From sequence record PZ445440.1: DNA of 64,000 nt; one strand, given 5' to 3'. Position numbers and translations under genes: made by a program. Of this stretch, positions 39,097-45,408 are shown one piece after another; position 1 is the first letter of the stretch; each line of letters opens with the position of its first letter. The DNA comes from a phage. Below the pieces are notes generated by a model. It was not told the origin of the DNA. It did no database searches and saw only the letters and a program-made list of their open reading frames with translations.

Positions 39097-39337
39097 CTCG
39101 GTCCCATGATTTGGCCATTAATTCGGACATAAATTCTTCAATGCGCGTTTCTTTAGATGGACTTTCACTATTAGAGACCGCAAGTTTGTAATCTGCAATA
39201 GGACAAAACATATCAAGGTCCATATTAAGATCGTCTTTGATTTTTTCTTCTGACACATCTTTATCGTATGTGTACAGATAACTATCACATGATTCTGATT
39301 TAATGTAAATTGCTATACTCATCTCAAATTCCTGCAT
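39086..39337 (-). CDS. hypothetical protein
   Basis: track ORF. Confidence 0.5.
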   Translation of the reverse strand: MQEFEMSIAIYIKSESCDSYLYTYDKDVSEEKIKDDLNMDLDMFCPIADYKLAVSNSESPSKETRIEEFMSELMAKSWDRDDE

Positions 39338-39810
39338 TCGGTAATAAAACGTTCAACTTCATTATTCTTGGCCTTTATCTTGTCTTTACGTTCCTGTAAA
39401 CTACTTTTAACAAGATTAATAATGATGCCTACAGTACCTCCACCAATGATGCCACCAACAACACTTATGATACTAGATGCTAATAAGATAGCAATAATAT
39501 CAACAAAACCGAAAGAACTCACCTTAGTACTAAAAAACCACACTGACGGTACAAATATAATCCATCCTGTTATCCATTGGCACTTATTGAAAAACTTTTC
39601 AAGCTCAGCTTGAGTTGTTCGTATTACTTCATCGATAGGTTGATATCCATTAATGTATCTGTTCACGATAATACCTGCTGGCTGGTTGATTTTAAATTCT
39701 TGGCAAATATGTTTCACTAAGTAGGACGGACATCCTGTCCAATCTACTGAATAATACGAAATACCTTCGTTGCCATCGTCTATATTAGACCAATATGTTT
39801 TGTTAATCAT
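39319..39810 (-). CDS. membrane protein with C-terminal ERFITECR tail
   Basis: track ORF; two TM segments; shared C-terminal motif family. Confidence 0.55.
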   Translation of the reverse strand: MINKTYWSNIDDGNEGISYYSVDWTGCPSYLVKHICQEFKINQPAGIIVNRYINGYQPIDEVIRTTQAELEKFFNKCQWITGWIIFVPSVWFFSTKVSSFGFVDIIAILLASSIISVVGGIIGGGTVGIIINLVKSSLQERKDKIKAKNNEVERFITECRNLR

Positions 39811-40496
39811 TACCAGCCTTCCATAGGGAATTCCAGATAAACTTGGGCATTGACACGAATTTCATTGGTAATCTTTTTAACTCGGTCTGTATTACGAGAT
39901 ACACGTCCGAACCAACGCCATCCGTTACTAATTGCACGAGAACCAGTGTGCCATGTTTGCCAATCAAACTGAAGAAGAGTACGGTCTGGAGCTTCCCATT
40001 TCTCTAGTTCACCTTTTTCGATTTTTTCGAGGACTTCTTTGTGCCACTGGCGATAGATAAGTTCGCCATCAGGAATCTGACTGAACTCTGCAGTTCCTGT
40101 TGCAAAATGAGTAGGACACACATCAGAGTTAACAAGACCAAGAATATGTTCAGAATGGTAACGAGGGTTGTCATAGTCAGGTTGTCCTGCAGTAATAAAG
40201 TGTTGACCAACTGGAATATCCGGGCGTGGTACATCGTCATGGTGATAACCTGGGATAGCAGGGTACCAACCAGGCATCAGCATGTGGACTCGTGAATCAA
40301 ATACAACCTGGTCGGTGTTCCAATCATCCGGCAAGTTCATGATGAAGCTGCGAGTAATAGGACCGCCGTTATTATAAGCAAATTCTAAACTACAGTTAAA
40401 GAACATCGGTTCGTTCTTGATTTTATCATTAGAAATGCTACCGGCAAAACCACCTACTGCACGAGCTTGGCTATTAAACACTTTAGAACTATTCAT
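39810..40496 (-). CDS. hypothetical protein (228 aa)
   Basis: track ORF. Confidence 0.55.
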   Translation of the reverse strand: MNSSKVFNSQARAVGGFAGSISNDKIKNEPMFFNCSLEFAYNNGGPITRSFIMNLPDDWNTDQVVFDSRVHMLMPGWYPAIPGYHHDDVPRPDIPVGQHFITAGQPDYDNPRYHSEHILGLVNSDVCPTHFATGTAEFSQIPDGELIYRQWHKEVLEKIEKGELEKWEAPDRTLLQFDWQTWHTGSRAISNGWRWFGRVSRNTDRVKKITNEIRVNAQVYLEFPMEGW

Positions 40497-40497
40497 A

Positions 40498-40803
40498 TTA
40501 TTTTCCTCGACATTCTTTAATGAAATTTTCTAGATTGGTAGATTCAATAGCTTTTTTACGAGCTTCTGCGTGTTCTTCTTCGGACAATTTACGTTTATAA
40601 TTGACCCAGACATTATGGTCTAAACCGGTCGTGGCATATAATATCAAAGCTCCGACGAATAATAAAAACGGTGATAAAAATATACAACCAGGAACACCAT
40701 CCATACTGTAAGCCTTTTGTAATACTGCAACAGAAAGAGCTGCGTAAAAAAGCGATGCAAATATTGTAAAAAGACCGATTCGGTTGGTTTCGCCTAATTT
40801 CAT
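40498..40803 (-). CDS. membrane protein with C-terminal ENFIKECRGK tail
   Basis: track ORF. Confidence 0.55.
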   Translation of the reverse strand: MKLGETNRIGLFTIFASLFYAALSVAVLQKAYSMDGVPGCIFLSPFLLFVGALILYATTGLDHNVWVNYKRKLSEEEHAEARKKAIESTNLENFIKECRGK

Positions 40804-40823
40804 AATATTCTCCTCATGTTTTA

Positions 40824-40861
40824 ATAGGACTACTATAACATAGCCCTATAATTGTGTAAAC
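40824..40861 (-). promoter_or_regulatory. early promoter GTTTAC/TTATAGT with inverted repeat ATAGGACTA/TAGCCCTAT
   Basis: read from sequence. Confidence 0.5.
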
Positions 40862-40873
40862 AGTTTTGTGAAG

Positions 40874-41830
40874 TTATTTGAAAGGTTTTACCATATGGAA
40901 ATTTTGTTTGAAACGTTTGACGTAATCGTCGTGTCCTAAGCTTTGGTACATACTTACTACTTTGCTGTAGTTTTCCCAGGCATACTCACGGAACCAACCA
41001 GAGGTGATGCTTGTACAGACCTTTTCCAATGCCATCATGAAACTGGCTTCAGGGTTAATTTTAAAGTCATTAGGAATTTGAGAACGTTCTAATGCTAGTA
41101 CACATGATTCTTCGTATACACCGGCCAGTTTAATCATTTCTGGTAACGATTCGAACTTCTCGCGTGAGGTCATGACTTCAGAACCGTCTTTCATGTAAAA
41201 CGTATAAGCCGGACGGTCTGTTAGTGCAATGGCTTCATGAATAGTATCATGGTCATATGTATAGATGTCATCTTTAAAGAACGCACTTTTAGAAGTGTCA
41301 AGAACCGGGTGAGCATAGTTCAAAGTTTCTTTCTGGCGTTTCAGCATAATTTCAGTAAGTTCATCGTTCAGTGTAACACCTTTACCACGAAGATACTGAA
41401 TATGGTTCATAGTCTTTAAAAAGAATGGATTATTTTTCTTGAAACGGTGAGACATCTTAATTGCAAGACATATCTCAGGAGTTGCCCAGTAAAACCCGGT
41501 CAAACGGTCTTTAGTCAAATTTTTCTTGGCGTATTTTAAAAGGTCATAAGAAGACGTGAAATCTTCAGGAGTGAGTTCACCGACTAGTTCACGGACATTA
41601 GTGATTGCCGGAACAATATACGCTTCAAAATGAGTTTCGCGTCCATTATGGAAGCATTTGAAAACTTGGACATCAGGGTTATCTTGGTGGACATATACAC
41701 CCATCATTTGATTTTTGAATGCATTCCAAGAACATTGGTCCGCAATAAAGTCCCAATCACTATTTTTGATAGCGCTAGAATCAATAAGACCGTGATAGTG
41801 AAGTGCACGAGAACCAATAACTAACAACAT
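40874..41830 (-). CDS. hypothetical protein, possible nucleotidyltransferase fold (weak)
   Basis: N-terminal VIGSRALHYHG...SDWDF loosely fits GSx..Dx[DE] pattern; uncertain. Confidence 0.45.
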   Translation of the reverse strand: MLLVIGSRALHYHGLIDSSAIKNSDWDFIADQCSWNAFKNQMMGVYVHQDNPDVQVFKCFHNGRETHFEAYIVPAITNVRELVGELTPEDFTSSYDLLKYAKKNLTKDRLTGFYWATPEICLAIKMSHRFKKNNPFFLKTMNHIQYLRGKGVTLNDELTEIMLKRQKETLNYAHPVLDTSKSAFFKDDIYTYDHDTIHEAIALTDRPAYTFYMKDGSEVMTSREKFESLPEMIKLAGVYEESCVLALERSQIPNDFKINPEASFMMALEKVCTSITSGWFREYAWENYSKVVSMYQSLGHDDYVKRFKQNFHMVKPFK

Positions 41831-41858: not shown

Positions 41859-42110
41859 TTAAATTTCACGACATGCGATATCATATTCATCCCAGAGGTC
41901 ATCATGTGAAGCCTCTACCAATGGAACGATTGTACCATTTATGTCTTCATTATAAGGGCAAATTGTACAGTGCGCATCTTCGAATCGGATGCCTTTGTGT
42001 TCAGATTTTTTATAACGCATATCGAATATCTTTGCAAACTTTTCACGAGTAATGGTTTTACCAACCACTTTGGTTCCGATACTTTCGTAATAAATCATTT
42101 TGTTCTCCAT
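41859..42110 (-). CDS. hypothetical protein
   Basis: track ORF. Confidence 0.5.
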   Translation of the reverse strand: MENKMIYYESIGTKVVGKTITREKFAKIFDMRYKKSEHKGIRFEDAHCTICPYNEDINGTIVPLVEASHDDLWDEYDIACREI

Positions 42111-42117
42111 TTGTTTT

Positions 42118-42156
42118 GATAGGACTACTATAACATAGCCCTATCTTGTTGTAAAC
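42118..42156 (-). promoter_or_regulatory. early promoter GTTTAC/TTATAGT with inverted repeat GATAGGACTA/TAGCCCTATC
   Basis: read from sequence. Confidence 0.5.
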
Positions 42157-42160
42157 TGTT

Positions 42161-42358
42161 TTAGCAAGAATAACTAGATGATACCCAGCCTTGAACAGTG
42201 ATACTATTGTGGGATAATGAGATCGCGTCCTGGAGATTCAGACCTGCGTTATCTTCAATCCATAATGTAACTTCTTCGCGTTCTTCTGTTGCAATTTGGA
42301 ACAGGTTTTCTAGAGCAGCTACTGCGGTACGTACAGCACAATCTAATTCACGAGACAT
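42161..42358 (-). CDS. small protein, paralogue family ending GWVSSSYSC
   Basis: track ORF; C-terminal motif shared with next two ORFs. Confidence 0.5.
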   Translation of the reverse strand: MSRELDCAVRTAVAALENLFQIATEEREEVTLWIEDNAGLNLQDAISLSHNSITVQGWVSSSYSC

Positions 42359-42367
42359 ATGGTTTCC

Positions 42368-42640
42368 TTAGCAAGTGTGAGAAGATGCAACCCAACCGCC
42401 ATCTTCAAGGCTCAGGTTGTAGTCGTATTGGTAAACGTCAGCCCATTCAGCATAGCCGTTTTTTGTACAACGTTCAAGATCGGCTTTAAGATGTCCGGGT
42501 GAATGATAGGTTCCACCCATACCATAAGCTGGATACAAGTCGAATGTTGTGTTTTGTTTATCAGCAATTTCTTTGGCAGCCTCAATAGCTGCATAGATTT
42601 TTGCTACAGCTTCGGCCAGTTCGGTTTGTTCTTTAGACAT
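42368..42640 (-). CDS. small protein, paralogue family ending GGWVASSHTC
   Basis: track ORF; YGMGGTYHSPG and C-terminus shared with 42650..42955. Confidence 0.55.
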   Translation of the reverse strand: MSKEQTELAEAVAKIYAAIEAAKEIADKQNTTFDLYPAYGMGGTYHSPGHLKADLERCTKNGYAEWADVYQYDYNLSLEDGGWVASSHTC

Positions 42641-42649
42641 AATGATTCC

Positions 42650-42955
42650 TTAGCACAACGCAGAAGACGAAACCCAAGCACCTTCAGTAATAACGTAACC
42701 ATTACCTTCACGCTTAACATCACCACCATTATTTTCAATTTCATCTTTCATCCACTGGGATACGATTTCACCCTTAGGATAATAAGTACGTCCGCTACCA
42801 TAATCACCTACAGAAAATGATACGGCATATTGGTCTGCGATCTTTGTTGCTTCTTCTTCGATACGTTCAGCTTGATTCAGAAGTTTATAAATTGCATCTG
42901 AAGCGGATTTGGCATCATTAAACTCTGGTACTTTAATTTCAATAATCTTACTCAT
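42650..42955 (-). CDS. small protein, paralogue family ending GAWVSSSALC
   Basis: track ORF; YGSGRTYYPKG. Confidence 0.55.
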   Translation of the reverse strand: MSKIIEIKVPEFNDAKSASDAIYKLLNQAERIEEEATKIADQYAVSFSVGDYGSGRTYYPKGEIVSQWMKDEIENNGGDVKREGNGYVITEGAWVSSSALC

Positions 42956-43311
42956 TTTCTACATTCCTTAATAAAGTTTTCGATTGTTTCATTTTCACGT
43001 TTAGCTAGAAGTTCATTATAACTAATCATTTGAGAAGCGTAAACCTTTTTATTTTTCTTGTTATGGTTTATAAAATCGTAGTAAAAATAGACTACAGTAC
43101 AAAATGATGCGATGGATGCAAAGGCTTGGGTATACCGTAAGTCCTGCCATTGGTCTGTGAATCCACCGGTATTCCCTATAAATCCTAACACAACTCCGTC
43201 AATAAGAAATCCAACTAATCCAAAGGCAAATCCCATGCCAATACTCATAATAAAAATTAAAATATTCTCACCAAGAGAAGGCCATACGGTTAAGAGTTGA
43301 GGCTTTTGCAT
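42952..43311 (-). CDS. membrane protein with C-terminal ENFIKECRK tail
   Basis: track ORF. Confidence 0.55.
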   Translation of the reverse strand: MQKPQLLTVWPSLGENILIFIMSIGMGFAFGLVGFLIDGVVLGFIGNTGGFTDQWQDLRYTQAFASIASFCTVVYFYYDFINHNKKNKKVYASQMISYNELLAKRENETIENFIKECRK

Positions 43312-43664
43312 CTTATTTCCTTAACGAATTCCATAGCTTCTTCATATTCATACTTTTTAACAGCTTCATCATACTGAGCTTGGGCTTTTGCGCACTGAAC
43401 TTTCCACTCGCGAACTCGAGCTCTGTGATGACGGCCTTGGTGCCAATATCCTGCCCAATTAATAGGCATTAATAAAAACGGTACAATAAGTGGTGCGACG
43501 AACATTAATGAAAACGCTGCATCAGACGATATAACTTTATTGGAATCTAAAATAGCTCCTATAATCATAAAGATTAAAAATGCTAAAGCTAAAATAGGGC
43601 CAAATAGTACTTCGTTTGGGATTAATTTACGTTTGTATTCGTATGCCCAGGGCTTAATTGGCAT
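43290..43664 (-). CDS. membrane protein (C-terminus EFVKEIRCKSLNS)
   Basis: track ORF trimmed to internal ATG. Confidence 0.5.
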   Translation of the reverse strand: MPIKPWAYEYKRKLIPNEVLFGPILALAFLIFMIIGAILDSNKVISSDAAFSLMFVAPLIVPFLLMPINWAGYWHQGRHHRARVREWKVQCAKAQAQYDEAVKKYEYEEAMEFVKEIRCKSLNS

Positions 43665-44277
43665 GTACAGGGTTGGCTTTGACATATTCTCTACATTCCA
43701 TAATAAATTGCTCAAGGATTAAATTGTTAGTGAAATTAGGACTAACAACCATAGTTTCATAAAGCGCATCAATAGCACTTAAAGCATCAACTCTTTTAAG
43801 CAAAGGCTTGCCTTCATACATAGTTTCAGAATCGACGATTAACGTAAAGTAATATTTTTTATTATCGACTAGAACTTCTGTGTCGATATAAAACATATTA
43901 GACCTCAGAAGCTTATCTCTAAAACCATAATAATCTTCTGAACGTTCGCTGATATATTCCCATTCAGTGTTTAAACAACAAACAGACCACGTAGGAGCAA
44001 CGAAATCAGTGAATCTAATATCATGGTCTGCAACTAGTTTAGCAATAGCTCCGATATCATGAATCATAATACCTGGGGCTAATAAAGATTTTCTGCTATG
44101 GCTAGCCGTTTTCTCAGTGGTCTCATAAGAAGCCGACCAGTACCATTTACGTCCGGTTGCAACATATCGTAATGAATCAACTAAAGACGTAGGTGGATTT
44201 ACCTTATCTCGGAACTCTTCGAACATTGAGTCAATATCATTATTTTGGTTTCGCATGTTAACTCCTTTATCATCCAA
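43654..44277 (-). CDS. hypothetical protein (207 aa) with EQFIMECREY near C-terminus
   Basis: track ORF. Confidence 0.55.
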   Translation of the reverse strand: MDDKGVNMRNQNNDIDSMFEEFRDKVNPPTSLVDSLRYVATGRKWYWSASYETTEKTASHSRKSLLAPGIMIHDIGAIAKLVADHDIRFTDFVAPTWSVCCLNTEWEYISERSEDYYGFRDKLLRSNMFYIDTEVLVDNKKYYFTLIVDSETMYEGKPLLKRVDALSAIDALYETMVVSPNFTNNLILEQFIMECREYVKANPVHAN

Positions 44278-44305
44278 AAGGAGGACCGGAGTCCTCCGTA
44301 TTATT

Positions 44306-44899: not shown

Positions 44900-44969
44900 A
44901 TTATTACCTTTCAATTGGTGGTTTATTATCCAATGAGAGCATTATACTCTGCTCTCAAGAGTTTGTAAA

Positions 44970-45197
44970 TTATTTTTTAATCAAATTGACATAAAACTTG
45001 GCGTCTTCCGGGTGCATGCCTTCACAGTATTCTTCAACCATGAACTTCTTAACAGCTTCATAAGGACCACTCAGATTAAGCTCAGTTGTCCAGAACTTGG
45101 AATCTTGGACTGAATCGATACGAACTTCAGGGTGACGGTTGCGAATAACTTCTTCGGTATATTCATAATCAACGACATCAATACTAACTTTAGCCAT
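44970..45197 (-). CDS. hypothetical protein
   Basis: track ORF. Confidence 0.5.
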   Translation of the reverse strand: MAKVSIDVVDYEYTEEVIRNRHPEVRIDSVQDSKFWTTELNLSGPYEAVKKFMVEEYCEGMHPEDAKFYVNLIKK

Positions 45198-45243
45198 TTT
45201 GTTTTCCTCTTGATTTGATGTGATTACTATAACATAAACTTAC

Positions 45244-45408
45244 TTAGATGTAAATTATTTCAACGTCACCTTTAGCGGCTTTATAACCTTCAGCCCAAGA
45301 TACAACAGAGTTTTTATCTGAGGATTCAAATTCAGGCATTGGACTTTCACCAATATTCACACAGTATGTTTCTTCATTTTCATCGAACCAAATAATTAAA
45401 GTAGTCAT
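45244..45408 (-). CDS. hypothetical small acidic protein (54 aa)
   Basis: hand translation MTTLIIWFDENEETYCVNIGESPMPEFESSDKNLVVSWAEGYKAAKGDVEIIYI. Confidence 0.3.
   Translation of the reverse strand: MTTLIIWFDENEETYCVNIGESPMPEFESSDKNSVVSWAEGYKAAKGDVEIIYI

Follow-up and report, generated by a model that had tools for sequence, protein, structure and literature searches.

Small acidic phage proteins with an obligatory C-terminal cysteine and a DUF7277+DUF7275 protein as a candidate two-gene module

Three small open reading frames (ORFs) at positions 42161-42955 of a 64,000-nucleotide stretch of phage DNA (sequence record PZ445440.1, hereafter the window) encode proteins that end in the same Trp- and Ser-rich tail with a terminal Cys. 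They belong to a large, uncharacterised protein family that is restricted to phages, and in distantly related phages the genes of this family lie directly beside the gene of a protein with the domains DUF7277 and DUF7275 (referred to below as the enzyme). We give an even chance to the reading, suggested by the sequences and their genomic order, that the small Cys-tail proteins and the DUF7277+DUF7275 enzyme constitute a two-component phage module. The small acidic proteins would then be partners of the enzyme (regulators, adaptors or substrates) that engage it via the free Cys tail, and the enzyme itself may combine, judging from its conserved residues, a nucleotidyltransferase of the Pol-beta type with a His/Asp-rich domain.

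The window region is 100% identical to MZ501056, the T4-like Mosigvirus Escherichia phage ChristianSchoenbein (Bas46), and the locus is situated in a variable segment with lysozyme/NudE genes on one side and transfer RNA (tRNA) genes on the other. The three small ORFs are arranged head-to-tail on the minus strand in a single reading frame, with the transcription order ORF3, ORF2, ORF1, and all three are annotated in MZ501056 as coding sequences for a 'hypothetical protein' (bas46_0231, bas46_0230 and bas46_0229, respectively). ORF3 (42650..42955; 101 amino acids (aa), 'A-type') combines an N-terminal helix, the sequence IADQY and a DYGSGRTYYP hairpin with the tail GAWVSSSALC-COOH; ORF2 (42368..42640; 90 aa, 'B-type') contains IADKQ, AYGMGGTYHSP and the tail GGWVASSHTC-COOH; and ORF1 (42161..42358; 65 aa, short 'D-type') consists of a highly conserved N-terminal helix, MSRELDCAVRTA.AALENLFQ, and the tail QGWVSSSYSC-COOH, the YGxG loop being absent. 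An earlier note, made from the letters of this DNA, had listed the coordinates, the MS(K/R) starts, the three tails and the shared YG.G.TY and IADQY/IADKQ motifs, all of which are present in the sequence as described. The start codon of ORF3 shares bases with the stop codon of an upstream membrane-protein ORF (ATGA); a 'sulfurtransferase' label found in some GenBank records belongs to a neighbouring membrane-protein ORF and not to the three small ORFs.

The same note had regarded the three ORFs as tandem paralogues, a view that holds well for ORF2 and ORF3 (BLASTP E=1e-6, 30% identity over 73 residues) and less firmly for ORF1, whose similarity to ORF2 or ORF3 is confined to the tail region (BLASTP E=1e-3, about the last 16 residues shared). 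The C-terminal similarity, for which the note had allowed that it might not be significant, proved significant in a profile-profile comparison with hhalign of 10 long-type and 9 short-type sequences (E=4.7e-5 over the last 16 columns), and of all stop-to-stop ORFs in the window with a length of 35 aa or more (734), these three alone carry the tail. A common tail of this kind might also stem from repetition at the DNA level, for example of a translation-initiation cassette, in ORFs that are not expressed: a 51-nucleotide direct repeat (73% identity) covers the tail, spacer and start codon at both the ORF3/ORF2 and the ORF2/ORF1 junction. The 9-nucleotide spacers, read directly from the minus-strand sequence, are GGAATCATT between ORF3 and ORF2 (42641..42649, TAA-GGAATCATT-ATG) and GGAAACCAT between ORF2 and ORF1 (42359..42367, TAA-GGAAACCAT-ATG); in both, the Shine-Dalgarno sequence TAAGGAA of the following gene consists of the TAA stop codon plus spacer bases and overlaps the preceding stop codon. 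However, the Ser codons of the tails differ between the copies (TCG/TCA/TCT/AGT), which places the constraint on the protein and not on a DNA repeat, and the tail is kept even where no gene directly follows it (ORF1 is succeeded by a promoter-like site). Furthermore, the reading frames are intact in hundreds of divergent phages, the predicted structure of ORF3 is confident, and the differences from phage LF82-16 are exclusively synonymous in ORF3 (5 synonymous, 0 non-synonymous) and ORF1 (2 synonymous, 0 non-synonymous). Such an artefact is hardly conceivable, the codon evidence effectively refuting a DNA-repeat or non-coding explanation. The observation is real and highly non-random, and the sequences indicate that the three ORFs are protein-coding paralogues, with ORF1 as a distinct short type.

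In the comparison with LF82-16 the ratio of non-synonymous to synonymous substitution rates (dN/dS) was about 0 for ORF1 and ORF3 and 0.42 overall for ORF2. The LF82-16 orthologue of ORF2 (locus L120, 2501-2773) is a mosaic: its residues 1-45 are identical to the protein encoded at 42368-42640 of the window, but its C-terminal half corresponds to the B-type paralogue found in phages of the Enterobacter/Klebsiella type, which indicates recombination inside the ORF2 gene.

ORF3 and ORF2 match phrog_899 (E=1.3e-22 and E=4.8e-19, respectively) and ORF1 is a full-length member of phrog_4882 (E=7.7e-37); no Pfam family includes them and the functions of both PHROG families are unknown, in agreement with the statement of the earlier note that the family was not recognised. 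A local family hidden Markov model (HMM) of 145 sequences recovered ORF3 (E=2.4e-21) and ORF2 (E=3.3e-22); ORF1 gave no significant match to this broad model (E=0.32) and is linked to the two others by the tail, the array position and the N-terminal helix alone. Orthologues of ORF1 in other genera are 57-66% identical to it, residues 1-21 being nearly unchanged. When 1.84 billion cluster representatives were searched exhaustively with a profile (threshold E<=1e-3), 567 representatives of the family were identified, 53 of them at E<=1e-10; word-indexed searches recovered relatives from numerous T4-like genera, Aeromonas phage CC2 and jumbo-phage contigs of about 370 kilobases (kb). Among the matches listed, all extend to within 3 residues of the protein C-terminus and no sequence follows the domain; Cys is the terminal residue in 136 of the 146 new profile matches and is followed by one residue in 8 more (last or next-to-last in 144/146).

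The consensus of the tail is G-x-W-x-[S/A/P]-S-S-x-x-C-COOH, to which all three ORFs conform, with the stop codon directly after the Cys. In the alignment of 145 members the conserved columns are G(-10), G(-9), W(-8) (145/145), S/A/P(-6), S(-5) (145/145), S(-4) (143/145) and C(-1), and the Trp/Ser-rich C-terminal tail with its terminal Cys, to which the earlier note had drawn attention, is the defining conserved element of the family. The terminal Cys is the sole Cys in 89 of these members, the median length is 87 aa and the median isoelectric point 4.5 (acidic), and about a quarter of the members contain extra internal W-x-S-S motifs within an acidic linker. The family body comprises an N-terminal helix, (A/C)E-x-IAD-E-x-G, and then a Y-G-M-G-G-T-Y-Y hairpin; both are present in ORF3 (KIADQY...DYGSGRTYY) and ORF2 (EIADKQ...AYGMGGTYH), and ORF1 keeps the helix only, without the combination of (A/C)E.IAD and YGxG hairpin.

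Scans of the three ORFs and their neighbours against Pfam, NCBIfam and PADLOC gave no meaningful match to the small ORFs (sub-cut-off best matches, dismissed, were Peptidase_S78_2 with E=0.007, the MscS C-terminal domain with E=0.099 and PDC-S49 with E=0.01), and no known domains were found in the N-terminal extensions of longer family members. Cluster members are named 'hypothetical' except for automatic labels (e.g., UniRef 'Ig-like domain-containing protein' for the ORF1 cluster and NCBI 'DUF7275 domain-containing protein' for one member of an enzyme cluster). The literature, searched in full text for DUF7275/DUF7277 as well as for the names of the RB69 ORFs, yielded no account of these genes (two papers on cytosine glycosylation in RB69 and Thanatos were set aside, as they concern other loci), and the tail motif and the synteny were not found in any annotation or paper; the obligatory Cys terminus and the near-universal linkage to the DUF7277+DUF7275 gene appear to be undescribed.

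The AlphaFold2 model of ORF3, built on 10 sequences only, is confident (predicted local distance difference test score (pLDDT) 88.7, predicted template-modelling score (pTM) 0.73) and shows a helix (residues 15-43), a small sheet, a second helix (67-75), strands (79-96) and a short terminal helix (97-100). A Foldseek search of this model against the PDB matched nothing (best E 0.64), and the matches among predicted viral structures were uncharacterised relatives only; the fold, an alpha/beta one as modelled, is novel. The model of ORF1 was poor (pLDDT 68.6).

In the window the gene of the 318-aa enzyme (bas46_0227, 40874..41830; Pfam E=6.7e-27 for DUF7277 and 3.8e-79 for DUF7275) is located just downstream of the small ORFs and likewise on the minus strand. 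The same order was encountered when viral loci were fetched with the enzyme alone: 79 of the 80 loci contained one to five tail-bearing ORFs, 229 in total, all of which lay on the strand of the enzyme gene (none on the opposite strand) and 226 upstream of it. In the sole exception, tRNA genes are inserted at the expected spot and a remnant fragment (...YTSSC) is left. The small gene overlaps the enzyme gene or is only 1-50 nucleotides away from it in many distant loci. All five enzyme-containing loci of the genome collection displayed the same arrangement, as did Pseudomonas phiPsa374, Klebsiella ZCKP1, Acinetobacter Abraxas, Shewanella Thanatos-1 and a Variovorax phage; in Stenotrophomonas Ps15 a tail gene also accompanies the enzyme, but downstream. 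Conversely, in distant loci retrieved with the small protein the enzyme gene follows it directly (among them a jumbo-phage contig of 371 kb, small contigs from metagenomes and Aeromonas CC2). Over 31 enzyme lineages with less than 60% mutual identity, the small family was the only conserved neighbour, and a third conserved gene beside the two was not found. The enzyme occurs in 734 records of phage genomes; a search of 185,579 species genomes detected it in 5 contigs only, all from metagenome-assembled or bin-derived genomes.

Some lineages have tRNA genes near the DUF7275 gene (L027, 4959-5109; L061, 3615-4567; L037, 7544-9629, with a transfer-messenger RNA (tmRNA)-like gene beside the tRNA cluster; L033, 5850-8011), and in Shewanella phage Thanatos-1 a tRNA gene directly adjoins it. 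In ChristianSchoenbein a tRNA gene (L001, 12378-12534) precedes the array, in the direction of transcription, by about 5 kb. A tRNA gene lies within 5 kb of the enzyme gene in 6 of the 31 diverse lineages, and the association is weak.

Within an alignment of 11 diverse enzyme sequences, G6-S7, D25-x-D27 and E69 of the N-terminal part were invariant or nearly so; further unchanging residues were K125, S127-H128, K139-T140, R165, Y172-x-H174-P175, D193-H194-D195, H198, E240-E241 and E248-R249. Of these, H128, H174, D193-H194-D195, H198, E240-E241 and E248 belong to the C-terminal domain, as does the motif KVCTSITSGWFRE. The arrangement G6-S7...D25-x-D27...E69 resembles the signature of Pol-beta nucleotidyltransferases, from which we infer the putative activity ('putative nucleotidyltransferase' is also the label in some GenBank records, given by other annotators only). 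All 11 sequences have in common a conserved block, KVCTSITSGWFR, that is unchanged or differs in one position in all 114 partner-linked loci examined, and every enzyme with KVCTSITSG... (114 loci) falls in the partner-linked group; the Cys of this motif, KVCTSITSGWFRE, is Cys272. Five homologues without a partner were recovered, namely Toniann gp16 of a Gordonia phage (L033, 3809-4600), KVP40.0037 (L034, 3656-4417), and those of Streptomyces Ankus, Vibrio 1.081.O and K470 (L032, 3929-4678; L121, 3818-4603; and L122, 3623-4372, make up the coordinates of the five). They are about 250-265 aa long and retain the GS/DxD and HD..H residues, with Ile or Val replacing the Cys of KVCTSITSGWFRE and the block degraded (e.g., RTITSLTKG, KTITRLTKNW); no Cys-tail genes were present near these five, and no shared alternative small partner was found upstream of them.

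As a separate observation, the most conserved block of the enzyme, C-T-S-I-T-S-G-W (residues 270-281), when reversed (W-G-S-T-I-S-T-C), resembles the tail W-x-S-S-S-x-x-C; an antiparallel pairing of the two would set Cys opposite Cys and Trp opposite Trp, which may be coincidence.

Related loci contain arrays of up to five paralogue types in a conserved order, a variation among related phages (one to five copies per locus) for which the earlier note had proposed to look. Besides the A type (DYGSGRTYYP, the type of ORF3), the B type (AYGMGGTYYSP, that of ORF2) and the D type (the 65-aa MSRELDCA type of ORF1), there are a C type (...EYIP...GFWFSSSMSC) and an E type with an internal W-x-N-S-S-C-Y-G-E plus a terminal W-x-P-S-S-C. 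Mosigvirus has the array A-B-D, and other genera have A-B-D-C-E, A-B-C-E, A-E, B-C or a single copy.

According to the module that we consider, each small protein would bind the enzyme with its Cys-terminated tail, the contact lying in or close to the KVCTSITSGWFRE segment or the residues that resemble a metal site, and the docked protein would then be a regulatory or adaptor subunit, an inhibitor or a substrate; if a substrate, the enzyme might modify the tail at a Ser hydroxyl, at the Cys thiol or at the terminal carboxylate. The paralogues would hold the tail constant and vary the body, coupling one enzyme to several different partners, and the system would act early in infection; a role in counter-defence or host takeover is conjectured from the genomic location, the acidity and the turnover of paralogues. 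We regard the tail as the likely enzyme-engaging element because of its strict C-terminal position, its invariance in proteins with diverse bodies, the fixed synteny and gene order, and the loss of the partners together with the Cys of the enzyme. The suggestion of the earlier note that the tail is an interaction or modification site has thereby gained a candidate partner in the syntenic enzyme, but in the predicted structure the tail sits within the fold, and a structural role is possible.

Several points weigh against this interpretation. In the ORF3 model the tail (strand 93-96 and helix 97-100; pLDDT about 83) belongs to the fold and is not a free docking peptide, so that its role may be purely structural. 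For the enzyme, no nucleotidyltransferase match was obtained among Pfam, NCBIfam, PADLOC or PDB profiles, a comparison with the PDB (phmmer, and profiles of the full length and of a 28-sequence N-domain alignment) gave no match, and 11 members scanned against Pfam at E<=10 yielded no family besides their DUF domains. The correlation between Cys272 and the partner possibly reflects one evolutionary split and not many events. The homologues without a partner retain the catalytic-looking residues, which excludes the small proteins as the sole substrate; the enzyme probably has another primary substrate, and for the partner-linked clade the role of the small proteins may be that of regulators, adaptors, inhibitors or further substrates. 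The synteny could be a consequence of co-regulation alone in a variable ('hyperplastic') genome region, and in Mosigvirus an 83-aa ORF and a promoter-like site separate the small genes from the enzyme gene, which are therefore probably not co-translated. Finally, tail-less shortened orthologues exist of ORF3 (RB69ORF139c, 71 aa) and ORF2 (in vB_Eco_mar005P1, 75 aa); they are either natural loss-of-function alleles or sequencing errors, and single copies appear to be dispensable in the laboratory.

A serious rival, although we think it somewhat unlikely, is that the small proteins act alone as acidic inhibitors, decoys or binders of ligands or metals, directed against host or defence proteins. 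The tail would then cap the structure or bind a small molecule, a metal or a host target, and the synteny with the enzyme gene would come only from a neighbourhood of accessory genes that both share. Acidity, early location and paralogue expansion are typical of phage counter-defence genes, and the small proteins are acidic, expanded into paralogues and encoded in a region bounded by early-promoter-like repeats; moreover, the ORF3 tail is integrated, in the model, in a compact fold beside the conserved aromatic and Gly-rich YGxGxTYY, and the small genes and the enzyme gene appear in separate transcription units here. It is difficult to reconcile with such independence that the same-strand, upstream order persists across T4-like and jumbo phages, Phapecoctavirus, Otagovirus, Menderavirus and contigs of metagenome-assembled genomes, groups with hardly anything else in common, that the adjacency holds down to an enzyme identity of about 40%, and that loss of the partner coincides with loss of the enzyme Cys, which drift of the neighbourhood alone does not predict.

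Inhibition in the manner of an antitoxin, with the thiol and carboxylate of the C-terminal Cys inserted into the metal or active site of the enzyme, overlaps with the proposed module; the enzyme would be harmful or in need of gating, and the pair would be comparable to type II or type VII toxin-antitoxin systems or to protein inhibitors that block an enzyme with a chain end. The need for a free C-terminus, the unchanging His/Asp/Glu clusters and Cys of the enzyme, and the position of a small acidic gene just before the larger gene of the enzyme (in distant loci often with an overlap or a gap of 1-50 nucleotides) would all fit. It is nevertheless quite unlikely, as one to five copies per enzyme are unusual for antitoxins, the system belongs to virulent phages and is all but absent from bacterial genomes, no match to PADLOC or to toxin-antitoxin families was obtained, and the partner-less enzyme homologues have no obvious replacement inhibitor. 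By analogy with the protein-activation systems compared below, the enzyme might nucleotidylylate Ser or Cys, or adenylate the tail carboxylate for transfer to its Cys272, with the one to five paralogues as carriers or modifiers that would be charged and handed on to various host or phage targets, though with folds unrelated to those systems and a Cys end; we consider such a tagging system improbable. The tandem arrangement of several small ORFs beside one enzyme gene, with an invariable Ser at both -5 and -4, a frequent Ser at -6 and a terminal Cys, might also suggest precursors of ribosomally synthesised and post-translationally modified peptides (RiPPs), whose tail would be rewritten by the enzyme (for instance, Ser dehydration and Cys addition to give a lanthionine, or oxidative decarboxylation of the terminal Cys); the spacing S-x-x-C-COOH resembles that of peptides forming aminovinyl-cysteine (AviCys). 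This is very improbable: the proteins are predicted as folded domains and not as leader plus core, the 'core' is constant and the body varies (the reverse of typical RiPPs), the eight local ORFs that were scanned matched no Pfam family except DUF7275/DUF7277, and the neighbourhood has no third conserved gene.

With regard to the neighbouring features, the 83-aa ORF between ORF1 and the enzyme gene (bas46_0228, 41859..42110, minus strand; phrog_3723, function unassigned) was seen in T4-like loci but not in distant ones and is outside the conserved neighbour clusters, and for this reason it is probably not a core part of the module. The promoter-like site right after the ORF1 stop codon (42127..42155, minus strand) matches the consensus with TTTACA-17-TATAGT and an upstream TG, presumably a T4-type early promoter, and is predicted to start the next transcription unit, which would comprise the 83-aa ORF and the enzyme gene. 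Three copies of a 66-nucleotide repeat (40801-40866, 42096-42161 and 45195-45260; 76-82% identical) each contain, in minus-strand sense, a promoter-like site followed by a ribosome-binding site and a start codon, and they are predicted to divide the region into short transcription units. A candidate sigma-70-type promoter inside the upstream ORF (TTTACG-17-TATAAT, 43015..43043, minus strand) could drive the three-gene array, and stronger promoter-like sites by consensus match are found further upstream (44941-44969 and 45226-45254); the count of promoter-like sites in the region is not clearly above shuffled expectation.

A second C-terminal motif, ...(E/Q)-x-F-I-x-E-C-R..., was noticed on several unrelated small ORFs of the minus strand, mostly predicted membrane proteins (39319-39861, 40498-40803, 42952-43311 and 43654-44277, and in weaker form 43290-43715), with the endings ERFITECRNLR, ENFIKECRGK, ENFIKECRK and EQFIMECREY. 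It recurs on small ORFs at equivalent T4-like loci (e.g., L005, L013, L019 and L061) and sometimes overlaps the next ribosome-binding site, and variants without such a site exist. Between two minus-strand ORFs there is also a perfect GC-rich hairpin, GGAGGAC-CGGA-GTCCTCC (44280-44297), that is terminator-like on both strands.

If the partnership holds, it would represent a widespread two-gene module of large virulent phages (567 clusters of the small family, 734 phage records with the enzyme), neither component of which is like anything characterised, with an obligatory free C-terminal Cys preceded by Trp and Ser-Ser as its chemical signature. Three 'hypothetical proteins' would become a testable system with one enzyme, its natural partners and a mutational handle (the tail and Cys272), for which the partner-less homologues that lack the Cys would be natural controls. 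Because of the early-promoter-like flanks and the variation in copy number, the module would be a reasonable candidate for host takeover or counter-defence, relevant to phage-host biology and to the BASEL phage therapy strains. Without a partnership, the family would still be a very large orphan one, its new fold predicted with confidence.

Among known entries, direct membership was established only for catalogue families of unknown function: phrog_899 (ORF2, ORF3) and phrog_4882 (ORF1), with profile E-values from 1e-19 to 1e-37 for the small ORFs, and DUF7277/DUF7275. The RiPP arrays (lanthipeptides, AviCys peptides) are similar in their tandem small ORFs, single enzyme gene and Ser-x-x-Cys-COOH end; they differ in that the proteins here are folded and their tail is unchanging, as opposed to hypervariable, and no co-encoded tailoring gene was found among the eight local ORFs scanned. 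Tad1, Tad2, Acb2, Ocr and Arn likewise comprise small acidic proteins with early-promoter-like flanks and a copy number that varies among related phages, but fold similarity of ORF3 to solved sponge, DNA-mimic or acyl-carrier proteins was not found. With ThiS/MoaD and their partners ThiF/MoeB the system has in common, by analogy only, a free conserved C-terminus, a partner with possible nucleotidyl-transfer chemistry and an unchanging Cys; the tail here ends in Cys and not in Gly-Gly, the model shows a helix and then a small sheet in place of a beta-grasp fold, and no similarity to ThiF/E1 is detectable in the enzyme. The pairing of a G-S...D-x-D...E enzyme with small acidic proteins that bear unchanging hydroxyl residues recalls MntA-HepT (a type VII toxin-antitoxin system acting by AMPylation), GlnD-PII (uridylylation by a nucleotidyltransferase plus HD domain) and CitX/MdcG, which act on a Ser of small acidic acyl-carrier proteins; GlnD in particular is brought to mind by the transferase-like N-terminal part and the His/Asp-rich domain of the enzyme. 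These systems have no detectable sequence or fold similarity to either component. The partners described here are devoid of the HEPN Rx4-6H motif (no R-x(4-6)-H was present in the three ORFs, which also had no meaningful PADLOC or Pfam match), of the PII fold and of the helical bundle of acyl-carrier proteins; their conserved element is the extreme C-terminus ending in Cys, and the module, with one to five partners per enzyme, is confined to phages.

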